From positions 7,104 through 71,103 of the forward strand of contig CAZKCV010000005.1 in NCBI GenBank assembly GCA_964551605.1: a stretch of DNA of 64,000 bases, in the 5' to 3' direction. The position numbers and the translations under genes were made by a program. A model generated the notes under the pieces. It worked only from the letters and a program-made list of their open reading frames with translations, was not told the DNA's origin and ran no database searches. Positions within the stretch are counted from its first letter, which is position 1. Each line of letters opens with the position of its first letter. Below, piece by piece: positions 14,835 to 63,412 of the stretch. Source of the DNA: an uncultured Gammaproteobacteria bacterium (GTDB taxonomy: Bacteria; Patescibacteriota; Microgenomatia; Daviesbacterales; UBA10151).

Positions 14835-14861
14835 CTGCCCATTGTACCATGCCTATCTCTG

Positions 14862-14939
14862 CTTCCACCTCGGAGGTGGAAGTGTAGCTACACCTCGGTA
14901 TGTCCACCCTTGAGGTGGATTCATATTGACACCTGCGGA
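14862..14939. repeat. Copy 1 of a ~80-bp dispersed repeat with nested perfect palindromes (CTTCCACCTC-G-GAGGTGGAAG, then GTGTAGCTACAC)
   Basis: A 40-nt stretch (cttccacctcggaggtggaagtgtagctacacctcggtat) is identical to 25424-25463. The rest, ending ...ccttgRggKgatt...tattgacaSctgcgga, is ~85% identical. Confidence 0.85.
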
Positions 14940-19527: not shown

Positions 19528-20550
19528 CTAACTCTGCAAATACTCCCCCAAATTCTCATTAGTCACCTTAAACGGCCCCACCTCCCCTTCTACTTTTTTC
19601 CTGGCTACTTTGCGGCAAATTGCCTGTAAAGACCGAGAGAGAGACCTAATTCCTGAGTCAAAACCTAAAGGCCGAAGGATGGATGGCCAGGTAGCTTCAT
19701 CAATTACTAGCAAACCCTGATCGATCCCCGATTCTTTAATAGCCTTAGGCAACAGGTAATTTTTCCCAATCATTAACTTTTCTTCATCAGAATAAGACGG
19801 CATAAGAATTGGTTCTAACCTATCTAATACGGCAGTGGCAATATTGCCGGTATTGTTGGCTGTAGCAATAAAAAGCACCTGAGATAAATCATAAGGAAAA
19901 TCCAAATAATGATCCAGAAATGCCTGATTTTGGGCCGGATCCAAAAGCTCTACCAATACCCCCATAATATCTACCCGCTGTTCAACAGCCACCCGATCTA
20001 TTTCATCTAAAAGTATCACCGGATTTGATACCTGAGCAGACTTAATGGCTTTCATAATTTGTCCCGGTTCAGCGTCCGGGCGGATGCGCGAGGTGCCCCT
20101 TAAGCTGGCCGGGTCTCCCAAACCGCCAAACGGAATCCTGATTAAGGGTCGTCCTAAACTCTCTGCAATAGAATAAGCCAGGGAAGTTTTGCCGGTACCG
20201 ACTAAACCGATAAATGCCAAAATCGGGGCATGAAAATCATTTTCCTGACCGGAGCTTTTATGCAGGATCAGTACTGACAAATATTCTAATATCCGGTCTT
20301 TCACTGATTGCAAACCGTAATGGTTTTTATCCAAAATCTGTTTGGCCCGGTTAATATCTAAAATGTCTTGTGAATTTTTTCCAAAAGGCAAAGAAATTAC
20401 AAAATTAATATAAGAAGTTAAACCAGCCAACTCTAGTCCTGATCCGCTAAATTGCAAATAATTAAGCAGCTTTTCCTCAATTTCTTTAGGAAGACCAACT
20501 TGGGTAATCTTTATCTTTAACTGTTCAATCGTACTATGGGCAGAATCCAT
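19528..20550 (-). CDS. Lon-like AAA+ ATPase module with no N-terminal substrate domain and no protease domain
   Basis: Walker A GLVGTGKTSLAYSIAESLGRP, Walker B VILLDEIDR, sensor-2/helical region ending ...GIRSLSRSLQAICRKVARKKV...NENLGEYL. This matches the end of the LonA ATPase domain; the ORF stops where the protease domain would begin. Confidence 0.7.
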   Translation of the reverse strand: MDSAHSTIEQLKIKITQVGLPKEIEEKLLNYLQFSGSGLELAGLTSYINFVISLPFGKNSQDILDINRAKQILDKNHYGLQSVKDRILEYLSVLILHKSSGQENDFHAPILAFIGLVGTGKTSLAYSIAESLGRPLIRIPFGGLGDPASLRGTSRIRPDAEPGQIMKAIKSAQVSNPVILLDEIDRVAVEQRVDIMGVLVELLDPAQNQAFLDHYLDFPYDLSQVLFIATANNTGNIATAVLDRLEPILMPSYSDEEKLMIGKNYLLPKAIKESGIDQGLLVIDEATWPSILRPLGFDSGIRSLSRSLQAICRKVARKKVEGEVGPFKVTNENLGEYLQS

Positions 20551-20572: not shown

Positions 20573-20598
20573 TTGTCATTCCTGCGAAAGCAGGAATC
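20573..20598. repeat. GTCATTCC-hairpin element (TTGTCATTCCTGCGAAAGCAGGAATC), short member of the GTCATYC family
   Basis: 8-bp stem ATTCCTGC/GCAGGAAT with a GAAA loop, between the 193-aa paralog and the lon-like gene. It shares the GTCATYC head with elements at 32642, 52803 and 63331. Confidence 0.6.
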
Positions 20599-20615
20599 TA
20601 TACAAATAATAATTA

Positions 20616-25297: not shown

Positions 25298-25423
25298 AGA
25301 ATTGTAGTCGCATTCTACACTTCTAGCCCATAATAGTCAAGTACCACGCTGACTATTTCAAGGTTCTGCCGAAGGCAGGTTCTTATAAAGATCAAGTCCT
25401 CGGTCTTCATTACTCTGAAGGAA

Positions 25424-25504
25424 CTTCCACCTCGGAGGTGGAAGTGTAGCTACACCTCGGTATATTCACTCTATGTTCACCCTTGGGGGATTTTGTATTG
25501 ACAG
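25424..25504. repeat. Copy 2 of the ~80-bp nested-palindrome repeat (see 14862-14939)
   Basis: gaaCTTCCACCTCGGAGGTGGAAGTGTAGCTACACCTCGGTAT...ccttgggggattttgtattgacagctgcgga. It lies between the divergent DHH-like gene and the Phd/RelE operon. Confidence 0.85.
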
Positions 25505-30677: not shown

Positions 30678-32600
30678 CTACTCTTCCTTTTTCTCTTCTT
30701 CTACCACTTCACCCTCCACTGCTTCATCTTTTTTGGGAGCTTCACCGTCAGGAGCCTGTTCTTCAGTTGGTTGCTCTCCTGATGCCTGTTGCCCACCGCC
30801 TGTTGCCTGCCCTTGGTACATGGCTGCACCCACTTTTTGCAAAGCTTCAGACAAAGCATCCATCTTAGGCTTTAAGTCTTCCGGAGATGCAGTTTTGATA
30901 ACACCTTTTAAGTCGCTGAGTTTTTGTTCTACATCTGTTCTGACATCTGCGGAGATCTTATCTCCGGCCTCTTTCAGACTTCTTTCTGCGGTAAAGACCA
31001 AAGTATCTGCCTGATTTCTGATCTCCACCTCTTCCTTTTTCTTTCTGTCCTCTTCAGCATGAGCTTCTGCTTCTTTAGTCATCTTCTCCACCTCATCTTT
31101 TGAAAGCCCGGTGGAACCGGTAATAGTAATATTCTGTTTCTTGCCTGTGGCTTTATCATGAGCAGTCACATTTAAAATACCATTGGCATCAATATCAAAG
31201 GTCACCTCAACTTGCGGCACACCCCGGGGAGCCGGCGGAATACCATCCAGGATAAAGCGACCCAGTGATTTATTATCTGCGGCCATCTCCCGTTCACCCT
31301 GCAGCACATTAATTTCAACAGAAGTCTGGTTATCGGCAGCAGTGGAGAAAACTTCTGATTTAGAAGCCGGAATAGTAGTATTTCTAGGAATTAATGGAGT
31401 TCTCACCCCACCCAAAGTTTCAATACCTAAAGTCAGAGGGGTTACGTCCAGGAGTAAAACATCTTTGACCTCACCGCCTAACACTCCACCTTGAATAGCA
31501 GCGCCCACCGCTACTACTTCATCAGGGTTAATGCCTTTGTGCGGCTCTTTGCCGAAGAAATCCTGGACTGCTTTTTGTACTGCCGGCATCCTGGTCATGC
31601 CTCCGACTAAAACCACCTCATCAATTTGCTTGGCGTCTAATTTGGCATCTTTGATGGCAGACTTTACAGCCTCAAAAGTTTTATCAATCAAAGGCGCAGC
31701 CTGTGCCTCCAGTTTAGCCCTGGACAGCTTCATTTCCAAATGCTTCGGACCGGAGGCATCTGCTGTCACAAACGGAATGGAAATCTCTGCCTCTTGGGTA
31801 GAAGATAGCTCAATTTTGGCTTTTTCGGCCGCATCCCGCAGTCTTTGCAAAGCTTGACGATCACCTTTTAGATCAATCCCCTGCTCTTTTCTAAACTCTT
31901 CTGCCAAAAAGTCTAAAATCACGGCATCAAAATCATCTCCGCCTAAGTGAGTATCACCATTAGTGGATTTAACCTCAATCACCCCATCACCCAACTCTAA
32001 AATGGAAATATCAAAAGTGCCGCCGCCTAAATCATAAACCGCAATAGTGTGGGCATGGGATTTATCCAGGCCATAGGCCAGTGCTGCTGCAGTTGGTTCA
32101 TTAATAATTCTTTGTACATTTAGGCCGGCAATTTCTCCGGCCTGTTTAGTGGCTTGTCTTTGCGCATCGTCAAAATAGGCAGGGACAGTGATCACTGCAT
32201 CAGTTACCTTTTCACCCAAATAAGATTCGGCATCGGCTTTGATCTTTTGTAAAATCTGTGCGGAAATTTCCTGGGGAGTATATTCATGGCCTTCCACTTC
32301 CACCACTGCCATGCCTTCCCGGCCTTCTTTAACAGTGTAGGGGAGCCACTTAATGTCGCGTTGTACTTCCGGGTCTTTAAACTTGCGGCCCATCAGTCTT
32401 TTTATGGAAAAAATAGTTTCTTTGGGGTTAACGATGGCCTGGCGTTTGGCCACCCGTCCGACAATATTTTTAATCGGATTAACTACCGAAGGGATAATAT
32501 TTTCCCCCTCAGCCGAATGGATCACCTTGGGTTTTCCACCCTCCATGACTGCCATTGCACTATTAGTTGTACCCAAATCAATACCAATTATCTTAGCCAT
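30678..32600 (-). CDS. dnaK: Chaperone DnaK (Hsp70)
   Basis: [22 protein letters not shown]..., Hsp70 signatures [18 protein letters not shown] and an acidic C-terminus EEEKKEE. Confidence 0.95.
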
Positions 32601-32610
32601 AGTCGTTATT

Positions 32611-32647
32611 TGACAAACAAATTACAATTTCTTAAATTTGTTTGTCA
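32611..32647 (-). promoter_or_regulatory. Intercistronic stem-loop between grpE and dnaK (13-bp AT-rich stem TGACAAACAAATT/AATTTGTTTGTCA, 11-nt loop), overlapping the grpE stop codon
   Basis: A perfect inverted repeat seen directly. Its right arm is continuous with the GTCATCCTGAG element that encodes the GrpE C-terminus. Confidence 0.5.
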
Positions 32648-33186
32648 TCCTGAGCGATTAGCGAAGGATCTCCTTCGGATTGTCCTTCCTGCTCATTTAT
32701 CTCCTTTCTTCCTACCACCACTGCCGCTGGCCTAAGTACCTTACTATTTAAAGTATACCCTTTCCTGACTACTTTTAATATTTTATTATCTTCCCCTACC
32801 TGTGTGTCAACTGCCTCGTGAAGGTTGGGATCAAATTGCCCGTCGGAGGCAATCTGCTCCAAACCCTCAATCTGTAAAACCTGATTCAACTCTTTAACTG
32901 CTAATTCTACTCCCCGAAACCAACCGGACTGCCTGTCTGTCTCATTTGCTCCAGCCAAAGCCTGTTCCAGATGATCCAATGCCGGCAGGATCTTAGTAAG
33001 AAGCTCACCGGTACCCCACCGGGTCAGCTCTGACCTGCCTTCTGCCACTCTTTTTTCCAAATTATGGTAATCAGCCACTGCTCTTTTTAGCTGATTTTCC
33101 ATCTGCACACTTAACTGTTTGACAGAATCGAGCTCGTCTTGTAATTGCTTAAATTCTTCTGTTTGTGTATTTTGCTTTTTTCCCAT
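32632..33186 (-). CDS. grpE: Nucleotide exchange factor GrpE
   Basis: Coiled-coil N-terminus and GrpE core (LDHLEQAL, DPNLHEAV). The last ~15 codons are encoded by a GTCATCCTGAGCGATTAGCGAAGGATC repeat element. Confidence 0.85.
   Translation of the reverse strand: MGKKQNTQTEEFKQLQDELDSVKQLSVQMENQLKRAVADYHNLEKRVAEGRSELTRWGTGELLTKILPALDHLEQALAGANETDRQSGWFRGVELAVKELNQVLQIEGLEQIASDGQFDPNLHEAVDTQVGEDNKILKVVRKGYTLNSKVLRPAAVVVGRKEINEQEGQSEGDPSLIAQDDKQI
32642..32690. repeat. GTCATYCTGAG-family element (TTGTCATCCTGAGCGATTAGCGAAGGATCTCCTTCGG...) forming the 3' end of grpE
   Basis: ~26/30 identity with the intergenic element at 63331-63360 (TTGTCATTCTGAGTGATTAACGAAGAATCTCC). It shares its head and CGAAG core with 52803-52830 and its GAGCGATTAGCGA core with 23677-23689. 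Confidence 0.7.
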
Positions 33187-49701: not shown

Positions 49702-51402
49702 CTATGAGATATTTGTCAATAGTTTTAAAAGTTCGGCTTTGGAAATAACCCCAATTTTTCTGCCCACTTCTTTCCCGTCTTTTAGGACAATGTAGGTTGG
49801 GATGCTCATCACTCCATGCTCACTGGCTTTAGCTTGATTATCATCAACATTAATTTTTTCTATTTCCACCTTACCAGCCAGCTCTTTTTCCAATTCTTCA
49901 ATCACAGGCTCCATTACTTTACAGGGCCCACAATTATGAGAGACCATCCCATTAGTTATAACGGTATGAGGGTCGCCGACTGTAATACCTATTACATCAC
50001 GACTATCTGCTTCTTCAATTGATAAGACTCTTTCCCACAATAAGTTTCCTTGTTGACGCTGTTCCAACCATTTTATAAATAAAGCCTCACCGCCTTTAGC
50101 AGGATACACTACTTGAGTATCTCTATTTGCATAATTCCAGCTAACTATTGTGCCAACTGGGATTTGCAAACTCTCAGCAATTTGGTTACTGCTGACTCCT
50201 AAGGCTAACTGCTGAAGAGCAATTTGCTTTGCTTGAATATAACGATTACGTTCAAAAAGTCTGTACTGTAAAAACTCCCTGATAAAAGGAATGCTAACAT
50301 TCTTTGATCTAGCATAAGCGTAGCCAATACTAGCTAAGTTAAATAGCGATTGATAGTCAGTAGCTACTCTGAGTGAAATAATTACCCCGTCTTCATCATC
50401 ACTGCTTGATATATCCCTTACTTCAACTCCCAATTGTTCAAGTAATAATCCCAGTTGTTTCGCGTAAAGAATTCCCTCTCTCTCTAAATATTTTTCTTTA
50501 TGGAATTCAATTGCATTAACAGAAAATCTAGCATCATGAGAACTGCTACCTGCATGTTTCATTTGATAAGCAATTTTGCATCCATCTCCACCCAACCAGC
50601 CACTCAGAAAAGCTTTCTTGACTAAAATATCTCCCTCCATAATCCAATCTGGGATAAAATAAGCCTGGTTCTTTTTTCTGCCTTCTGGACAACCCAAAGC
50701 TTTTAGCAGAAAAAACAATGTTCTATTGAGATTGCGGCAACGTAAAATGTGTATGGTAAATTTTCTCTCACCAATTTGACGATCTTTAACTTGCCTTTTG
50801 ATTTCTAGTTTATCAAAACCTAGAATCTGTAGATCCTCTTTTATAGTCCTGGCATCATCTTCTGTGCCCACAAAGAAATGTGTCTCGTAAATATTGTGTT
50901 TTAAATCCTCATATAGATAACCATCAGTCATCACAAACCCAAGTAGTCTGGCTAAAATGGGTAGCCGTGAATTATTAGCTTTCAGAGGCAACAAACCCAA
51001 TTGAGTAAGTATCTTATCCGCAAAGATATTGCCAACAGAAGTCAGAATTACCTGATCATTATCTGATTCAAAAACTGGATTATCCTGAGCTGGATTAACC
51101 AGAATACTATCACCAATTATTAACTCTCTCAACTTCTTAAAACCTTCTTGAGTTAAGGCTAAATGATTGATATCTCCTATTAATTCTCTACCTGTTTCCA
51201 AAACTATTTTTTTAGAAAGTGCATTTTTAAAAATTCTTATCTTTTGGACTTTTTGAATTGATTGTTTTTTGGTCTTTGGATCAATTGCGACTAATTTTTG
51301 TCCTACCTGAACTTGTAAAGCTTTTATATAACCATTTTCAGTTAAAACCGGAGTTTCCGGATCAATACACCAAGGTGCCCAAAAATCCAAAAGTTTCATC
51401 AT
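49702..51402 (-). CDS. trxA: Thioredoxin interrupted by a 479-aa intein (precursor 566 aa; mature Trx ~87 aa)
   Basis: N-extein MMKLLDFWAPW plus C-extein CGPCKVMEP...IPTYIVLKDGKEVGRKIGVISKAELLKLL reconstitute a canonical thioredoxin (DFWAPWCGPCK). The insert begins with C and ends ...VSHN before the +1 Cys. Confidence 0.85.
   Translation of the reverse strand: MMKLLDFWAPWCIDPETPVLTENGYIKALQVQVGQKLVAIDPKTKKQSIQKVQKIRIFKNALSKKIVLETGRELIGDINHLALTQEGFKKLRELIIGDSILVNPAQDNPVFESDNDQVILTSVGNIFADKILTQLGLLPLKANNSRLPILARLLGFVMTDGYLYEDLKHNIYETHFFVGTEDDARTIKEDLQILGFDKLEIKRQVKDRQIGERKFTIHILRCRNLNRTLFFLLKALGCPEGRKKNQAYFIPDWIMEGDILVKKAFLSGWLGGDGCKIAYQMKHAGSSSHDARFSVNAIEFHKEKYLEREGILYAKQLGLLLEQLGVEVRDISSSDDEDGVIISLRVATDYQSLFNLASIGYAYARSKNVSIPFIREFLQYRLFERNRYIQAKQIALQQLALGVSSNQIAESLQIPVGTIVSWNYANRDTQVVYPAKGGEALFIKWLEQRQQGNLLWERVLSIEEADSRDVIGITVGDPHTVITNGMVSHNCGPCKVMEPVIEELEKELAGKVEIEKINVDDNQAKASEHGVMSIPTYIVLKDGKEVGRKIGVISKAELLKLLTNIS
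49933..51369 (-). mobile_element. Intein with LAGLIDADG homing endonuclease domain inserted at the thioredoxin WC|GPC active site
   Basis: Block A CIDPETPVLTENGYIKAL, two dodecapeptide motifs LLGFVMTDGYL and FLSGWLGGDGCK, and terminal block DVIGITVGDPHTVITNGMVSHN followed by Cys+1. Confidence 0.8.
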
Positions 51403-51479: not shown

Positions 51480-53486
51480 ATGCCCAACTTCCTCTTAGAT
51501 GACCTAAATCCTATCCAAAAACAAGCTGTCCAAGCCACCGAAGGTCCAGTTCTAATTTTAGCGGGGGCGGGTTCCGGTAAAACTAAAGTCTTAACCCACC
51601 GGGTGGCTTATTTAATCCAAGATAAAGGTATACCGCCGGAAAATATCCTATGTCTGACTTTCACCAATAAAGCTGCTGGTGAAATGATGGACCGGATTAG
51701 GAAACTTCTCCAAACTACCAACTACCAACTACCAACTACTCCCATCATGGGCACATTCCATAGCTTTTGCGCCAGGATCCTGCGCCGTGAGGGTCGGACC
51801 CTGGGACTCCCACCGGGATTTGCCATCTATGACGAAGGTGACACGCTGGACGCAGTAAAAGAAGCCATGGGCAATTTAAACATCCCCACCCAAAAAACTT
51901 CCCCCCACTCTGTCCGGACTACCATTTCCGGCGCTAAAAATGAACTCATCTCTTCCCTGGAATACCCCCAATATGCCAGGGGTTACTTTCAGGAAACGGT
52001 CGCCAAGATTTACCTGGAATACCAGAAAATTCTAGAGCGTAATCACGCCCTGGACTTTGATGACCTACTACTGTATGTCATTAGGTTATTCCAGGCCGAA
52101 CCCGCTATTTTAACCCGCTACCAAATTCAATTCAAATACATCTTAATTGACGAATACCAGGACACCAACCCGGCTCAATATCTAATCAGTAAGTATTTAG
52201 CCAACCGCCACAAAAACATCTGCGTGGTGGGAGATGCCAGCCAATCAATTTATTCCTTCCGGGGAGCTGATTTCCGCAATATTGTGAATTTTCAAAAAGA
52301 CTACCCGAATACTAAAGTCTTTAATCTTGAGCAAAATTACCGTTCTACTCAAAATATTCTGGATGCGGCCTTTGCAGTCATTTCCAAAAATAAATCCCAT
52401 CCAATCTTAAAGCTTTGGACTGATAACGATAGCGGAGAGAAAATTGAAGTGGTGGAAGTGAGAAATGAGATTGAGGAAACCTTATTTATCCTAAATACCA
52501 TCGCTCACCTCCGAGGTGAGCTTAAGACGACACCAGGATCACACCTCGGAGGTGTAACAAAATTATCTGATTTTGCCATCCTTTACAGAACCAATGCCCA
52601 ATCCAGATCTTTAGAAGAACAATTTCTAAAAGCCGGCATTCCATATCAACTAGTCGGCGGGGTCAGTTTCTATGCCAGAAAGGAAATTAAAGATGTTTTA
52701 GCTTATCTTCGCTTACTGCAAAACCCCAAAGATTCCGTATCCTTAAAACGGGCAGAGAAAATCGGTAAAGGAAGGCTCACCAAAATCATGGAACTCCAAA
52801 ACGTCATTGCGAGCGAAGCGAAGCAATCTGGCCCAGATAATAACCCCACCCAGATTGCTTCGTCGCCCCGTACCGTACGGTACGGGGCTCCTCGCAATGA
52901 CGACTTGTCTTGCACTACCCTTGAACTTCTGGACAAGATCCTAGAGGTAGCAGGTTATTTGACTTACCTGGACGATAGTACCGAAGAAGGAAAAATCCGG
53001 ATAGAAAACGTCAAAGAGCTACGCTCTGTAGCAGAAGAATTTCCTGATCTAACTAACTTTTTAGAAAACGTTGCTTTAATGGAAGCTTCCGATACACCGA
53101 AACACCGAAACACTGAAACGCTGAAAAAAGATGCCGTTACCTTAATGACCTTGCATTCCGCCAAAGGCTTAGAGTTTCCGGTCATTTTTATGGTTGGCAT
53201 GGAAGAAGGTCTATTCCCCCATTCAAGGTCTATGTTAGATCTTCATGAACTGGAAGAAGAAAGAAGACTTTGTTATGTTGGCATTACTAGGGCTAAAGAA
53301 AAATTGTACTTAACTTATACCAAGCAAAGGTTATATTTTGGCCAAAGAAGCAATAATTTAGTATCCAGATTTTTAGGAGATATCCCTCAGGATTTAATTT
53401 TAAGCAATACCAATTTTCGGGATCAGGATAGCTTTTTAGATGATGTTACTAGTAATATCAATGAGGACGATTGGCTAAAGATTTGA
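51480..53486 (+). CDS. uvrD: ATP-dependent DNA helicase UvrD/PcrA family, carrying several in-frame repeat insertions
   Basis: Walker A AGAGSGKTKVLTHRVAYLI, motifs TFTNKAAGEM, GTFHSFC, DEYQDTNPAQY, VGDASQSIYSFRGAD, TLHSAKGLEFPVIF, and VGITRAKEKLYLTY. Confidence 0.85.
   Translation: MPNFLLDDLNPIQKQAVQATEGPVLILAGAGSGKTKVLTHRVAYLIQDKGIPPENILCLTFTNKAAGEMMDRIRKLLQTTNYQLPTTPIMGTFHSFCARILRREGRTLGLPPGFAIYDEGDTLDAVKEAMGNLNIPTQKTSPHSVRTTISGAKNELISSLEYPQYARGYFQETVAKIYLEYQKILERNHALDFDDLLLYVIRLFQAEPAILTRYQIQFKYILIDEYQDTNPAQYLISKYLANRHKNICVVGDASQSIYSFRGADFRNIVNFQKDYPNTKVFNLEQNYRSTQNILDAAFAVISKNKSHPILKLWTDNDSGEKIEVVEVRNEIEETLFILNTIAHLRGELKTTPGSHLGGVTKLSDFAILYRTNAQSRSLEEQFLKAGIPYQLVGGVSFYARKEIKDVLAYLRLLQNPKDSVSLKRAEKIGKGRLTKIMELQNVIASEAKQSGPDNNPTQIASSPRTVRYGAPRNDDLSCTTLELLDKILEVAGYLTYLDDSTEEGKIRIENVKELRSVAEEFPDLTNFLENVALMEASDTPKHRNTETLKKDAVTLMTLHSAKGLEFPVIFMVGMEEGLFPHSRSMLDLHELEEERRLCYVGITRAKEKLYLTYTKQRLYFGQRSNNLVSRFLGDIPQDLILSNTNFRDQDSFLDDVTSNINEDDWLKI
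51713..51740. repeat. Heptanucleotide tandem repeat (AACTACC) x3 perfect + 1 imperfect, in frame within uvrD (encodes TTNYQLPTTP between helicase motifs Ia and II)
   Basis: aactaccaactaccaactaccaactact read directly. Related CTACCA-type heptads occur in the FemAB-like gene (59408-59476) and sbcD (62894-62914). Confidence 0.85.
52503..52557. repeat. Two CACCTC-N-GAGGTG palindromes (GCTCACCTC-C-GAGGTGAGC and ACACCTC-G-GAGGTGT) in frame within uvrD; same core as the 14862/25424 repeat
   Basis: Direct reading. They encode HLRGELKTTPGSHLGGVTKL, a segment absent from typical UvrD alignments at this position. Confidence 0.7.
52803..52901. repeat. 99-bp in-frame palindromic (MITE-like) element in uvrD, with perfect 11-bp TIRs GTCATTGCGAG / CTCGCAATGAC, an internal 13-bp inverted repeat and a 22-bp perfect palindrome
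   Basis: gtcattgcgagcgaagcgaagcaatctgg...ccagattgcttcgtcgCCCCGTACCGTACGGTACGGGGctcctcgcaatgac. It is exactly 33 codons (VIASEAKQSGPDNNPTQIASSPRTVRYGAPRNDD) and belongs to the GTCATYC family. Confidence 0.85.
53098..53127. repeat. Octamer-like tandem repeat ACCGAAAC/ACCGAAAC/ACTGAAAC/GCTGAAAA in frame within uvrD
   Basis: accgaaacaccgaaacactgaaacgctgaaaa encodes TPKHRNTETLKK just before the conserved motif V region. Confidence 0.6.
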
Positions 53487-63328: not shown

Positions 63329-63412
63329 TTGTCATTCTGAGTGATTAACGAAGAATCTCCAGACTCGTTCTGGAATAAATCTAGAGATCCTTCACTACGT
63401 TCAAGATGACAA
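63329..63412. repeat. 84-bp MITE-like GTCATYCTGAG-family element with imperfect TIRs (TTGTCATTCTGA ... TCAAGATGACAA) between sbcD and sbcC
   Basis: ttgtcattctgagtgattaacgaagaatctccagactcgttctgg...gagatccttcactacgttcaagatgacaa. The first 32 nt are ~85% identical to the grpE-end element at 32642. Confidence 0.75.

Follow-up and report, generated by a model that had tools for sequence, protein, structure and literature searches.

A palindromic in-frame insert in uvrD of a Candidatus Daviesbacteria genome as a probable inverted pair of Ssn-related, CGTC-tagged hairpin units

Short hairpin repeats headed by the tag CGTC or TGTC were surveyed in 2013 as CGTC-tagged repetitive extragenic palindromes (REPs) by Di Nocera, De Gregorio & Rocco (PMC3733652). 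According to that survey, they have a CGTC/TGTC head, A-T at the first two positions of the stem and short tails, form mostly inverted dimers that are often heterodimers, lack a dedicated transposase and occur in five phyla. The survey equates them with dRS3 of Neisseria and with two Rickettsia palindromic elements (RPEs), RPE-4 being CGTC-4 and RPE-6 being CGTC-1, and reports in-frame copies, many in repair genes and some in UvrD/Rep helicases, the in-frame dimers having their heads outward (e.g. SFLRKQES...DSRFRGND). A second line of work concerns SsnA, a small GIY-YIG protein that binds the 28-nt NTS (CGTCATTCCCGCGMAVGCGGGAATCYRG), an extension of dRS3, and cuts just upstream of it, on single-stranded DNA only (PMC11893778, Nat Commun 2025). 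The layout NTS-ssnA-NTS was reported there, Ssn homologues across bacteria were found flanked by related hairpins (SRMs), and the authors liken this layout to an insertion sequence. Here we describe a 99-nt palindromic element lying in frame within the uvrD gene of a 64-kb stretch of DNA (the window, to whose positions coordinates refer) from Candidatus Daviesbacteria (Microgenomates, candidate phyla radiation (CPR), Patescibacteria).

We consider it likely that this element is a non-autonomous inverted pair of units from the superfamily of CGTC-tagged REPs and Ssn-related hairpins, resembling a miniature inverted-repeat transposable element (MITE) and spread with an Ssn-type nuclease acting in trans. 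The superfamily also holds the dRS3/NTS repeats of Neisseria and RPE-4 and RPE-6 of Rickettsia. The original prediction, made from the window alone, had called the insert RPE-like, and this was right in kind: RPE-4 and RPE-6 are given in the survey text as CGTC-tagged REPs, with in-frame dimers that include those in UvrD/Rep helicases (PMC3733652).

Two inverted hairpin units within uvrD

The host gene encodes a UvrD/PcrA-type helicase (E = 6e-163 against Geobacillus PcrA, 1pjr). Its nearest relatives are annotated as UvrD-helicase of Candidatus Daviesbacteria, and the gene order around it is kept in seven other Daviesbacteria contigs. The element supplies 33 codons of the intact ORF (amino acids 442-474, peptide VIASEAKQSGPDNNPTQIASSPRTVRYGAPRND), exactly in frame as had been predicted. 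The host gene and the parts of the element are as follows.

51480-53486, plus strand: host gene, UvrD/PcrA-type helicase, an open reading frame (ORF) of 668 aa, intact through the element
52803-52901: 99-nt palindromic element, sequence GTCATTGCGAGCGAAGCGAAGCAATCTGGCCCAGATAATAACCCCACCCAGATTGCTTCGTCGCCCCGTACCGTACGGTACGGGGCTCCTCGCAATGAC; peptide predicted from the translated insert, QSGPDNNPTQIASSPR
52802-52831, plus strand: unit 1, with head CGTC (52802-52805), stem ATTGC (52806-52810), stem GCAAT (52823-52827) and tail CTGG (52828-52831); its interior, on the plus strand, is GA-rich (GAGCGAAGCGAA) and includes GCGAAGC
52832-52849: spacer of 18 nt between the two tails, CCCAGATAATAACCCCAC
52850-52902, minus strand: unit 2, inverted, reading on the minus strand CGTC ATTGC GAGGAGC-[CCCGTACCGTACGGTACGGG]-GCGACGAA GCAAT CTGG
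52865-52888: expanded tip of the unit 2 hairpin, a perfect 24-nt palindrome that adds 15 nt (5 codons)

A repeat finder recovered both of the perfect inverted repeats that had been claimed for the element, the terminal one of 11 bp (GTCATTGCGAG, 52803-52813, and CTCGCAATGAC, 52891-52901; 11/11 complementary) and the inner one of 13 bp (52819-52831 and 52850-52862; 13/13 complementary). A perfect palindrome, put at 22 bp in the original prediction, is likewise present, but is slightly longer at 24 nt (52865-52888, GCCCCGTACCGT/ACGGTACGGGGC). With the flanking C and G the terminal repeat lengthens to 12 nt (CGTC.../...GACG), and it reaches 17 nt at 88% complementarity. The terminal and inner repeats are not independent, because both stem from two inverted copies of a single hairpin unit of ~30 nt, CGTC-ATTGC...GCAAT-CTGG, arranged with heads outward and tails inward. 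The terminal repeat corresponds to the heads of the units and the inner repeat to the stem-tail parts of both. Each half has a [C/T]GTC head, a stem starting with AT and a C-T-G-G tail, which is compatible with the CYRG tail of the published NTS.

The element strand folds as a Y-shaped three-way junction. As RNA the fold reaches -60.5 kcal/mol (z = -11.5, with 0/200 shuffles as stable) and as DNA -36.7 kcal/mol (z = -11.0); the 22-nt palindrome never found a match in shuffles. The GC content is 0.58 across the element, against ~0.36-0.47 over most of uvrD. Unit 2 alone folds as DNA at -14.4 kcal/mol (z = -3.9), and its base is the same as that of a common Ssn-adjacent unit, CGTCATTGCGAGGAGCGAAGCGACGAAGCAATC. 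The GCGAAGC inside unit 1 may form an unusually stable DNA mini-hairpin. In an orthologue from another lineage (L001) the tip of unit 2 is only GCCGTAGGC (GCCTACGGC) and the whole element is 84 nt long; because that tip is short, the 24-nt palindrome of the window is a lineage-specific expansion of one hairpin tip. The spacer differs from that of L001 at several positions, and the arms are identical. No further copy of the exact arms or of the palindrome was found elsewhere in the window, nor any match to an over-specified degenerate pattern.

Repeats of the same type beside Ssn nuclease genes

Repeats with the arms of the uvrD element are widespread. The pattern GTCATTGCGAG-N45-75-CTCGCAATGAC occurs in at least 120 viral contig stretches. 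Among the matches listed, 142 elements in viral contigs are 67-97 nt long, with the consensus GTCATTGCGAG-[short GA-rich hairpin]-GCAATC(C/T)NG-spacer-inverse, usually preceded by C/T and followed by G/A, and the exact 26-mer of unit 1 (GTCATTGCGAGCGAAGCGAAGCAATC) is present in 32/120 viral loci. Flavobacterium beibuense encodes a 98-aa GIY-YIG protein (PF01541, E = 8e-15) with ATTGCGAG units on both sides of its gene. Relatives of this protein, taken as Ssn homologues, were collected at 80 loci from species-representative genomes; these include Bacteroidota, Alpha- and Gammaproteobacteria, Chloroflexota, Nitrospirota, Spirochaetes, Acidobacteriota, Planctomycetota and a metagenome-assembled genome (MAG) labelled Rickettsia. 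A unit lies within 200 bp of the Ssn-homologue gene upstream at 54 of the 80 loci, downstream at 56 and on both sides at 44. For units of the ATTGCGA type alone, and the same distance, the figures are 48/80 on at least one side and 27/80 on both.

The commonest unit class beside the sampled homologues is ATTGCGAG; ATCCT and ATTCT units are found there too. A hairpin is formed by 178 of 275 GTCAT heads near Ssn-homologue genes, compared with 1.9% in shuffles, and the nearest flanking units mostly have their heads outward, giving the layout unit-ssn-inverted unit. The exact unit 1 26-mer adjoins Ssn-homologue genes at 8/80 genome loci, which span at least five phyla. A second set of 80 loci, from metagenomes, gave the same picture, with ATTGC as the commonest unit type. 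Among the genome loci is one from a Patescibacteria MAG (L156), whose Ssn homologue lies between TGTCTTTGCGAG...GCAATCTCT units. Because ATTGCGAG units flank Ssn-homologue genes in this layout, the window element looks like a gene-less, MITE-like derivative, in which the spacer occupies the place that the ssn gene holds in the full arrangement.

Full-length relatives consist of two inverted units around a GIY-YIG gene (Ssn) of ~95-100 aa, in place of which the window element has its 18-nt spacer. A possible course of events can be outlined. An Ssn-type nuclease encoded at another site would make or recognise single-stranded DNA intermediates, by way of which copies spread in trans. Joining would fall to host repair or replication, since GIY-YIG enzymes, to our knowledge, form no covalent transposition intermediates. 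Selection would then retain only frame-preserving insertions in permissive loops, which would explain the repeated hits on two loops of uvrD described below. The element itself probably does nothing useful for UvrD.

One metagenome contig, not from the CPR, carries two near-identical ssn genes (contig positions 3291-3596 and 5974-6279) within 3 kb. Each lies within arrays of ATCCT/ATTCT units, of the types found in the window at 32643 and 63330, with 21 such units over 6.4 kb, which points to local amplification of the entire unit-ssn-unit module.

Insertion into uvrD and further units in the window

Alignment of 120 Daviesbacteria UvrD orthologues showed a conserved linker of 16 residues (e.g. 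ELYQEVSLQLDKYPT) at the site in 80 of them; in the window this segment has 44 residues, and in 29 orthologues it is 20-56 residues long. The closest empty orthologue (L002, 80% identical) has an uninterrupted site at the DNA level, GAACTTTACCAAGAAGTCTCCCTGCAGCTTGATAAATATCCTACC. Two further lineages, L001 (83% protein identity) and L003 (78%), carry the element at the same junction, CAAAAC followed directly by GTCATTGCGAG, and the element is 99 nt long in the window, 84 nt in L001 and 78 nt in L003. When UvrD is aligned with PcrA (1pjr), the site falls within the 2B domain, directly behind a GIG-like motif, so the proposal of an insertion in the 2B region is borne out by the orthologues. The PcrA segment at this site is longer than that of the empty Daviesbacteria proteins and has no similarity to the insert. 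These alignments show that the pair entered a short linker on the surface of the 2B domain in an ancestor of the lineage, and that it is read through in frame. In an AlphaFold2 model built from 75 orthologues (mean pLDDT 69.8), helix 430-449 runs into the first eight inserted residues, residues 450-479 are coil and pLDDT falls below 50 at 456-471. The insert is predicted to give a short helix extension and then a disordered hydrophilic loop.

Two insertion hot spots stand out in the orthologue alignment, one being the 2B linker and the other a domain 2A loop near residues 343-360 of the protein encoded in the window, and 75/120 orthologues have an insert in at least one of them. Inserts in the 2B linker are read as VIAS...PRND when built of ATTGC units, or as SLRGASE...LGMT when such units lie in the next frame; ATCCT/ATTCT units are read as VILS...PQND and ATTCC units as VIPAEAGIH...GMT. 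At the DNA level, in the loci L124-L127, 2B-linker inserts are inverted pairs, often heterodimers, with heads outward and with junction positions that differ within the linker. The junctions of the window, L001, L003 and L124-L127 show no target duplication. Since one of the L124-L127 pairs is 68 nt long, it is the net change, not the element, that must be a multiple of three. Colonisation has been repeated, because in other Daviesbacteria both this linker and the second loop hold units of other types, in other frames and with other junctions. The insert states are scattered on a neighbour-joining ordering of the proteins, an ordering that is only indicative; this scatter would fit several gains, and old gains followed by losses are also possible. 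L124 has 15 units in 22 kb, among them a 96-nt in-frame pair inside a FemAB gene.

The arms of the element are unusually constant. At third codon positions of conserved residues, the window and L001 are identical at 14/14 sites in the unit arms, against 314/529 (59%) outside the element; between the window and L003 the arms are identical at 9/9 sites, with a background of 53%. The arms may be under nucleotide-level selection or may be kept uniform by exchange with other copies. The pairs also appear compatible with translation: across 186 distinct pairs about half of all frames are stop-free, compared with 30-37% in controls with shuffled interiors. In pairs with a length that is a multiple of three, direct reading shows that the arms leave two of the three frames open and close the third with the TGA of CAATGAC.

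The original prediction had asked whether most copies are multiples of three inside ORFs. Among the matches listed, the lengths of the 142 viral-contig elements are even over the three classes (46/52/44), and nearly all cases that appear inside an ORF, as judged from stop-free frames around the elements, are spurious frames in contigs with a GC content >60%. Two real proteins were found among these cases, both phage portal proteins from outside the CPR (PF04860, PF05133), and these do contain in-frame VIAS...PRND pairs whose lengths, 84 and 75 nt, are multiples of three. Judged by these lengths, a multiple of three is not a general property of the family.

A strict unit detector (a [CT]GTCAT head, closed within 50 nt by a stem of 5 bp or more that is followed by C and a pyrimidine) found five units in the window, two in uvrD and those at 20574, 32643 and 63330, against 0.36 expected; 0/500 shuffles reached five. 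It superseded a looser first detector, which had ~1.9% false positives per GTCAT and gave 2.5 'units' in shuffled windows, and whose hit at 31594 was discarded as chance. The GTCATYC-headed relatives that had been noticed near 20573, at the grpE end and between sbcD and sbcC are therefore real, the last as a full pair. Together with a second insert in uvrD they are listed here.

20574-20601, plus strand: single NTS-like unit, intergenic, TGTC ATTCCTGC GAAA GCAGGAAT CTAT
32643-32673, plus strand: single unit, TGTC ATCCT GAGCGATTAGCGA AGGAT CTCC, overlapping the last codons of grpE (minus strand)
63330-63411: inverted pair with heads outward, between sbcD and sbcC, made of an ATTCT-type unit and an ATCTT/AGGAT unit with a G-T wobble
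52506-52554, plus strand: second, unrelated palindromic insert in uvrD, at hot spot 1 in the domain 2A loop, CACCTCCGAGGTG...CACCTCGGAGGTG, peptide HLRGELKTTPGSHLGG

Both uvrD units have the head CGTC and the three other unit loci TGTC, and the first stem pairs are A-T in all window units. The unit at 20574 has a perfect 8-bp stem with a GAAA loop (DNA fold -7.8 kcal/mol, z = -6.5); in the uvrD units only 5 Watson-Crick pairs form, and a GA-rich interior and another small stem follow. The GrpE domain covers amino acids 4-159 of 184. The genes on either side of the 63330-63411 pair match Metallophos and AAA_23/SMC_N, and L124 carries a pair in the same sbcD-sbcC spacer (its positions 20022-20099). 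That the window and at least one more Daviesbacteria genome have a pair there may be a coincidence, or may go back to a common old insertion. sbcD and sbcC are the genes of a hairpin-cleaving nuclease.

The loop of hot spot 1 bears an HLRGE/HLGG signature in 19 orthologues, and SRM-type pairs are found at this place in others. The palindrome CACCTCGGAGGTG of the window insert is shared with a repeat of ~40 nt, TTCCACCTCGGAGGTGGAAGTGTAGCTACACCTCGGTAT, which has two intergenic copies (14860-14900 and 25422-25462) and a second palindrome, GTGTAGCTACAC; this is probably another small repeat family of the genome. One Daviesbacteria UvrD (P0049, 1082 aa) has a 439-residue intein with a homing-endonuclease region at Walker A, right after GSGKT, a different kind of selfish insert in the same gene. 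For the 99-nt element, an intein or intron was rejected on account of its 33 aa, the lack of splicing motifs and its translation in all lineages. A tRNA-derived origin was also rejected.

Elsewhere in the window, a perfect 13-nt inverted repeat (TGACAAACAAATT / AATTTGTTTGTCA, 32611-32647) lies between dnaK and grpE, and its right arm provides the TGTC head of the 32643 unit. A thioredoxin gene at 49702-51402 (minus strand) is split by an intein; its product of 566 aa matches Intein_splicing at amino acids 32-490 and Thioredoxin at 488-562. The gene is intein-less, with 84-86 aa, in L002, L003, L124, L126 and L127, and the long form is present in L001 and L125.

Competing explanations and comparison with known systems

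Several observations weigh against an origin of the uvrD element through Ssn. Searches for an Ssn/GIY-YIG gene by regular expression, tblastn and a small hidden Markov model came up empty, both for the 64-kb window and for ~140 kb of DNA syntenic to it in seven other Daviesbacteria; because the window has no such gene, we can only infer that Ssn mobilised the element. L156 is the single Patescibacteria example found, and as a MAG it may contain foreign sequence. The Ssn paper documents cleavage and an effect on transformation, not transposition or mobility (PMC11893778). Moreover, the published SRM motif, HGTCWYN(0-2)YYVSBRHN(0-5)WNVSBRGN(0-2)RNCYNB, fails to match any of the five units in the window or the common unit of the ATTGCGAG class. 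It does match the NTS and NTSvar controls, and the window units fit its head and tail segments and not its stem segment. Given the ATTGCGAG, ATCCT and ATTCT units beside Ssn homologues, the motif seems to miss unit classes that flank Ssn genes. Unit 1 by itself, with a Watson-Crick stem of 5 bp, is no more stable than shuffles under a nearest-neighbour model. Gene conversion between copies, and not function, could have kept the arms conserved, and the junction shared by distant branches of the UvrD tree could mean an old insertion followed by many losses.

The element could instead be a REP mobilised by a REP-associated tyrosine transposase (RAYT) or by a TnpA of the IS200/IS605 type (tyrosine HUH), like the gamma-proteobacterial GTAG REPs/BIMEs, in which case the association with Ssn would be secondary. 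A short 5' tag on a hairpin, inverted pairs, the lack of target duplication and occasional in-frame copies are all common to it and the RAYT-associated REPs, and the authors of the CGTC REP survey left open mobilisation by RAYT or another transposase (PMC3733652). However, the head is CGTC/TGTC and not GTAG, a Y1 transposase was not noticed among the Pfam matches of either the window or the syntenic loci, and the survey found no RAYT or IS200 gene with CGTC units at its sides (PMC3733652). In the 160 loci picked only for an Ssn homologue, by contrast, the units lie directly on both sides of the gene, and we regard mobilisation by a tyrosine transposase as unlikely. Less likely again is that the element acts in cis on uvrD, as a three-way junction in the mRNA or a DNA cruciform sensed by the helicase, and is kept by selection. 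Its very stable fold (z about -11) and the complete conservation of synonymous arm sites between two lineages would suit such a role, as would the recurrence of REPs in DNA repair genes according to the survey text (PMC3733652) and the other pair between sbcD and sbcC. Two thirds of the orthologues nevertheless have no insert at the linker, those that do differ in unit type, length and frame, and the same units are intergenic or stand beside Ssn genes in unrelated genomes. Rfam 15 gave no match in the window at the gathering threshold, with only a chance hit of 13.8 bits when 300 nt were searched up to E = 10; no terminator or promoter signature was seen at the element, and Ssn is inactive on RNA (PMC11893778).

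That the 33 residues are an ordinary, fast-evolving segment of the 2B domain, with a palindromic DNA sequence that is incidental or the result of local duplication and inversion, seems very improbable indeed. PcrA and UvrD1 are longer here than the empty Daviesbacteria proteins, and the 24-nt tip is indeed of local origin, or was expanded locally, in this lineage. Yet the arms are identical to repeats at hundreds of unrelated loci and to Ssn-flanking units, the window holds three further unit loci (five units against 0.36 expected), and the PcrA segment is dissimilar to the insert. An inverted pair of Ssn-related units, spread in trans and tolerated in a permissive linker, is thus the reading that we favour.

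A broader proposal is more doubtful, namely that inverted Ssn-type hairpin pairs as a class descend, with loss of the gene, from a widespread mobile element that encodes a single protein, a GIY-YIG single-strand nuclease of ~95-100 aa. Were this so, it would represent a class of mobile DNA driven by a nuclease and not by a transposase. It would account for 'orphan' CGTC REPs, for protein-coding palindromes of the RPE-4/RPE-6 type and for a 26-nt sequence that is base-identical in a CPR bacterium, Spirochaetes, Nitrospirota, Acidobacteriota and Proteobacteria. The hits on uvrD and the pair between sbcD and sbcC would then reflect a real interplay with enzymes that process hairpins and single-stranded DNA, beyond mere tolerance of the sites.

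Insertions of this kind are known, but the bacterial group is new for them, and the unit class appears new relative to the published CGTC REP families as described in text. In-frame palindromic repeats, mainly seen as a curiosity of Rickettsia, are found here in a CPR lineage with a tiny genome. The new angle is that an in-frame, RPE-like insert is tied to the Ssn nuclease system, with pairs that look like gene-less derivatives of unit-ssn-unit; CGTC REPs, which in the 2013 survey text had no dedicated enzyme (PMC3733652), thereby gain a concrete candidate partner for an in-frame member. In annotation, many differences in length between orthologues, and many spurious small 'hypothetical proteins' in MAGs, are explained by elements of this sort. 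Literature text searches with the repeat DNA and peptide strings, and for in-frame palindromes in CPR bacteria, returned nothing relevant.

Set against the CGTC-tagged REPs, as far as the survey text describes them, the uvrD element is alike in its head, the A-T start of the stem, the unpaired tail, the inverted pairing and the existence of in-frame copies. The published in-frame dimers give 20-30 residues with mirror-image ends, to which VIASEAKQS...APRND is the uvrD counterpart. The tag has the variants TGTC and CCTC there, and a 5' CGTC tag adjacent to the hairpin is present in both uvrD units. The four published families have perfect stems of 8-9 bp with loops of 4-5 nt, whereas in the uvrD units the stem is 5 bp long, the interior GA-rich and the tip variable. 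These units end in a CTGG tail, in contrast to the consensus CCA of the CGTC REPs and to CCAG in most viral-contig and Ssn-flanking copies, and the host phylum (Patescibacteria/CPR) lies outside the five reported. With the NTS (CGTCATTCCCGCGMAVGCGGGAATCYRG) the uvrD units share the head CGTCAT and the tail ATC-YRG. The unit classes of the window (ATTGC, ATCCT, ATTCT, ATTCC) directly flank Ssn-homologue genes, as NTS and SRMs do, although no ssn gene is near the uvrD copy.

Rickettsia RPE-1 (Ogata et al. 2000, 2002), as described in reviews, is likewise a palindromic repeat found in frame in unrelated housekeeping genes, translated and tolerated at surface-exposed positions; it is ~100-150 bp long and Rickettsia-specific, and the likeness to the uvrD element is one of description, not of sequence. 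Unlike GTAG REPs and their RAYTs, the uvrD element has no GTAG tag. The bacterial MITEs (Correia/NEMIS, RUP, ERIC, Nezha) are similarly short and numerous, bear terminal inverted repeats, encode nothing themselves and occasionally form in-frame fusions. A classical MITE, however, has a target-site duplication and a parent that bears a (DDE) transposase, whereas the uvrD element has no duplication and its presumed parent would carry a GIY-YIG nuclease.

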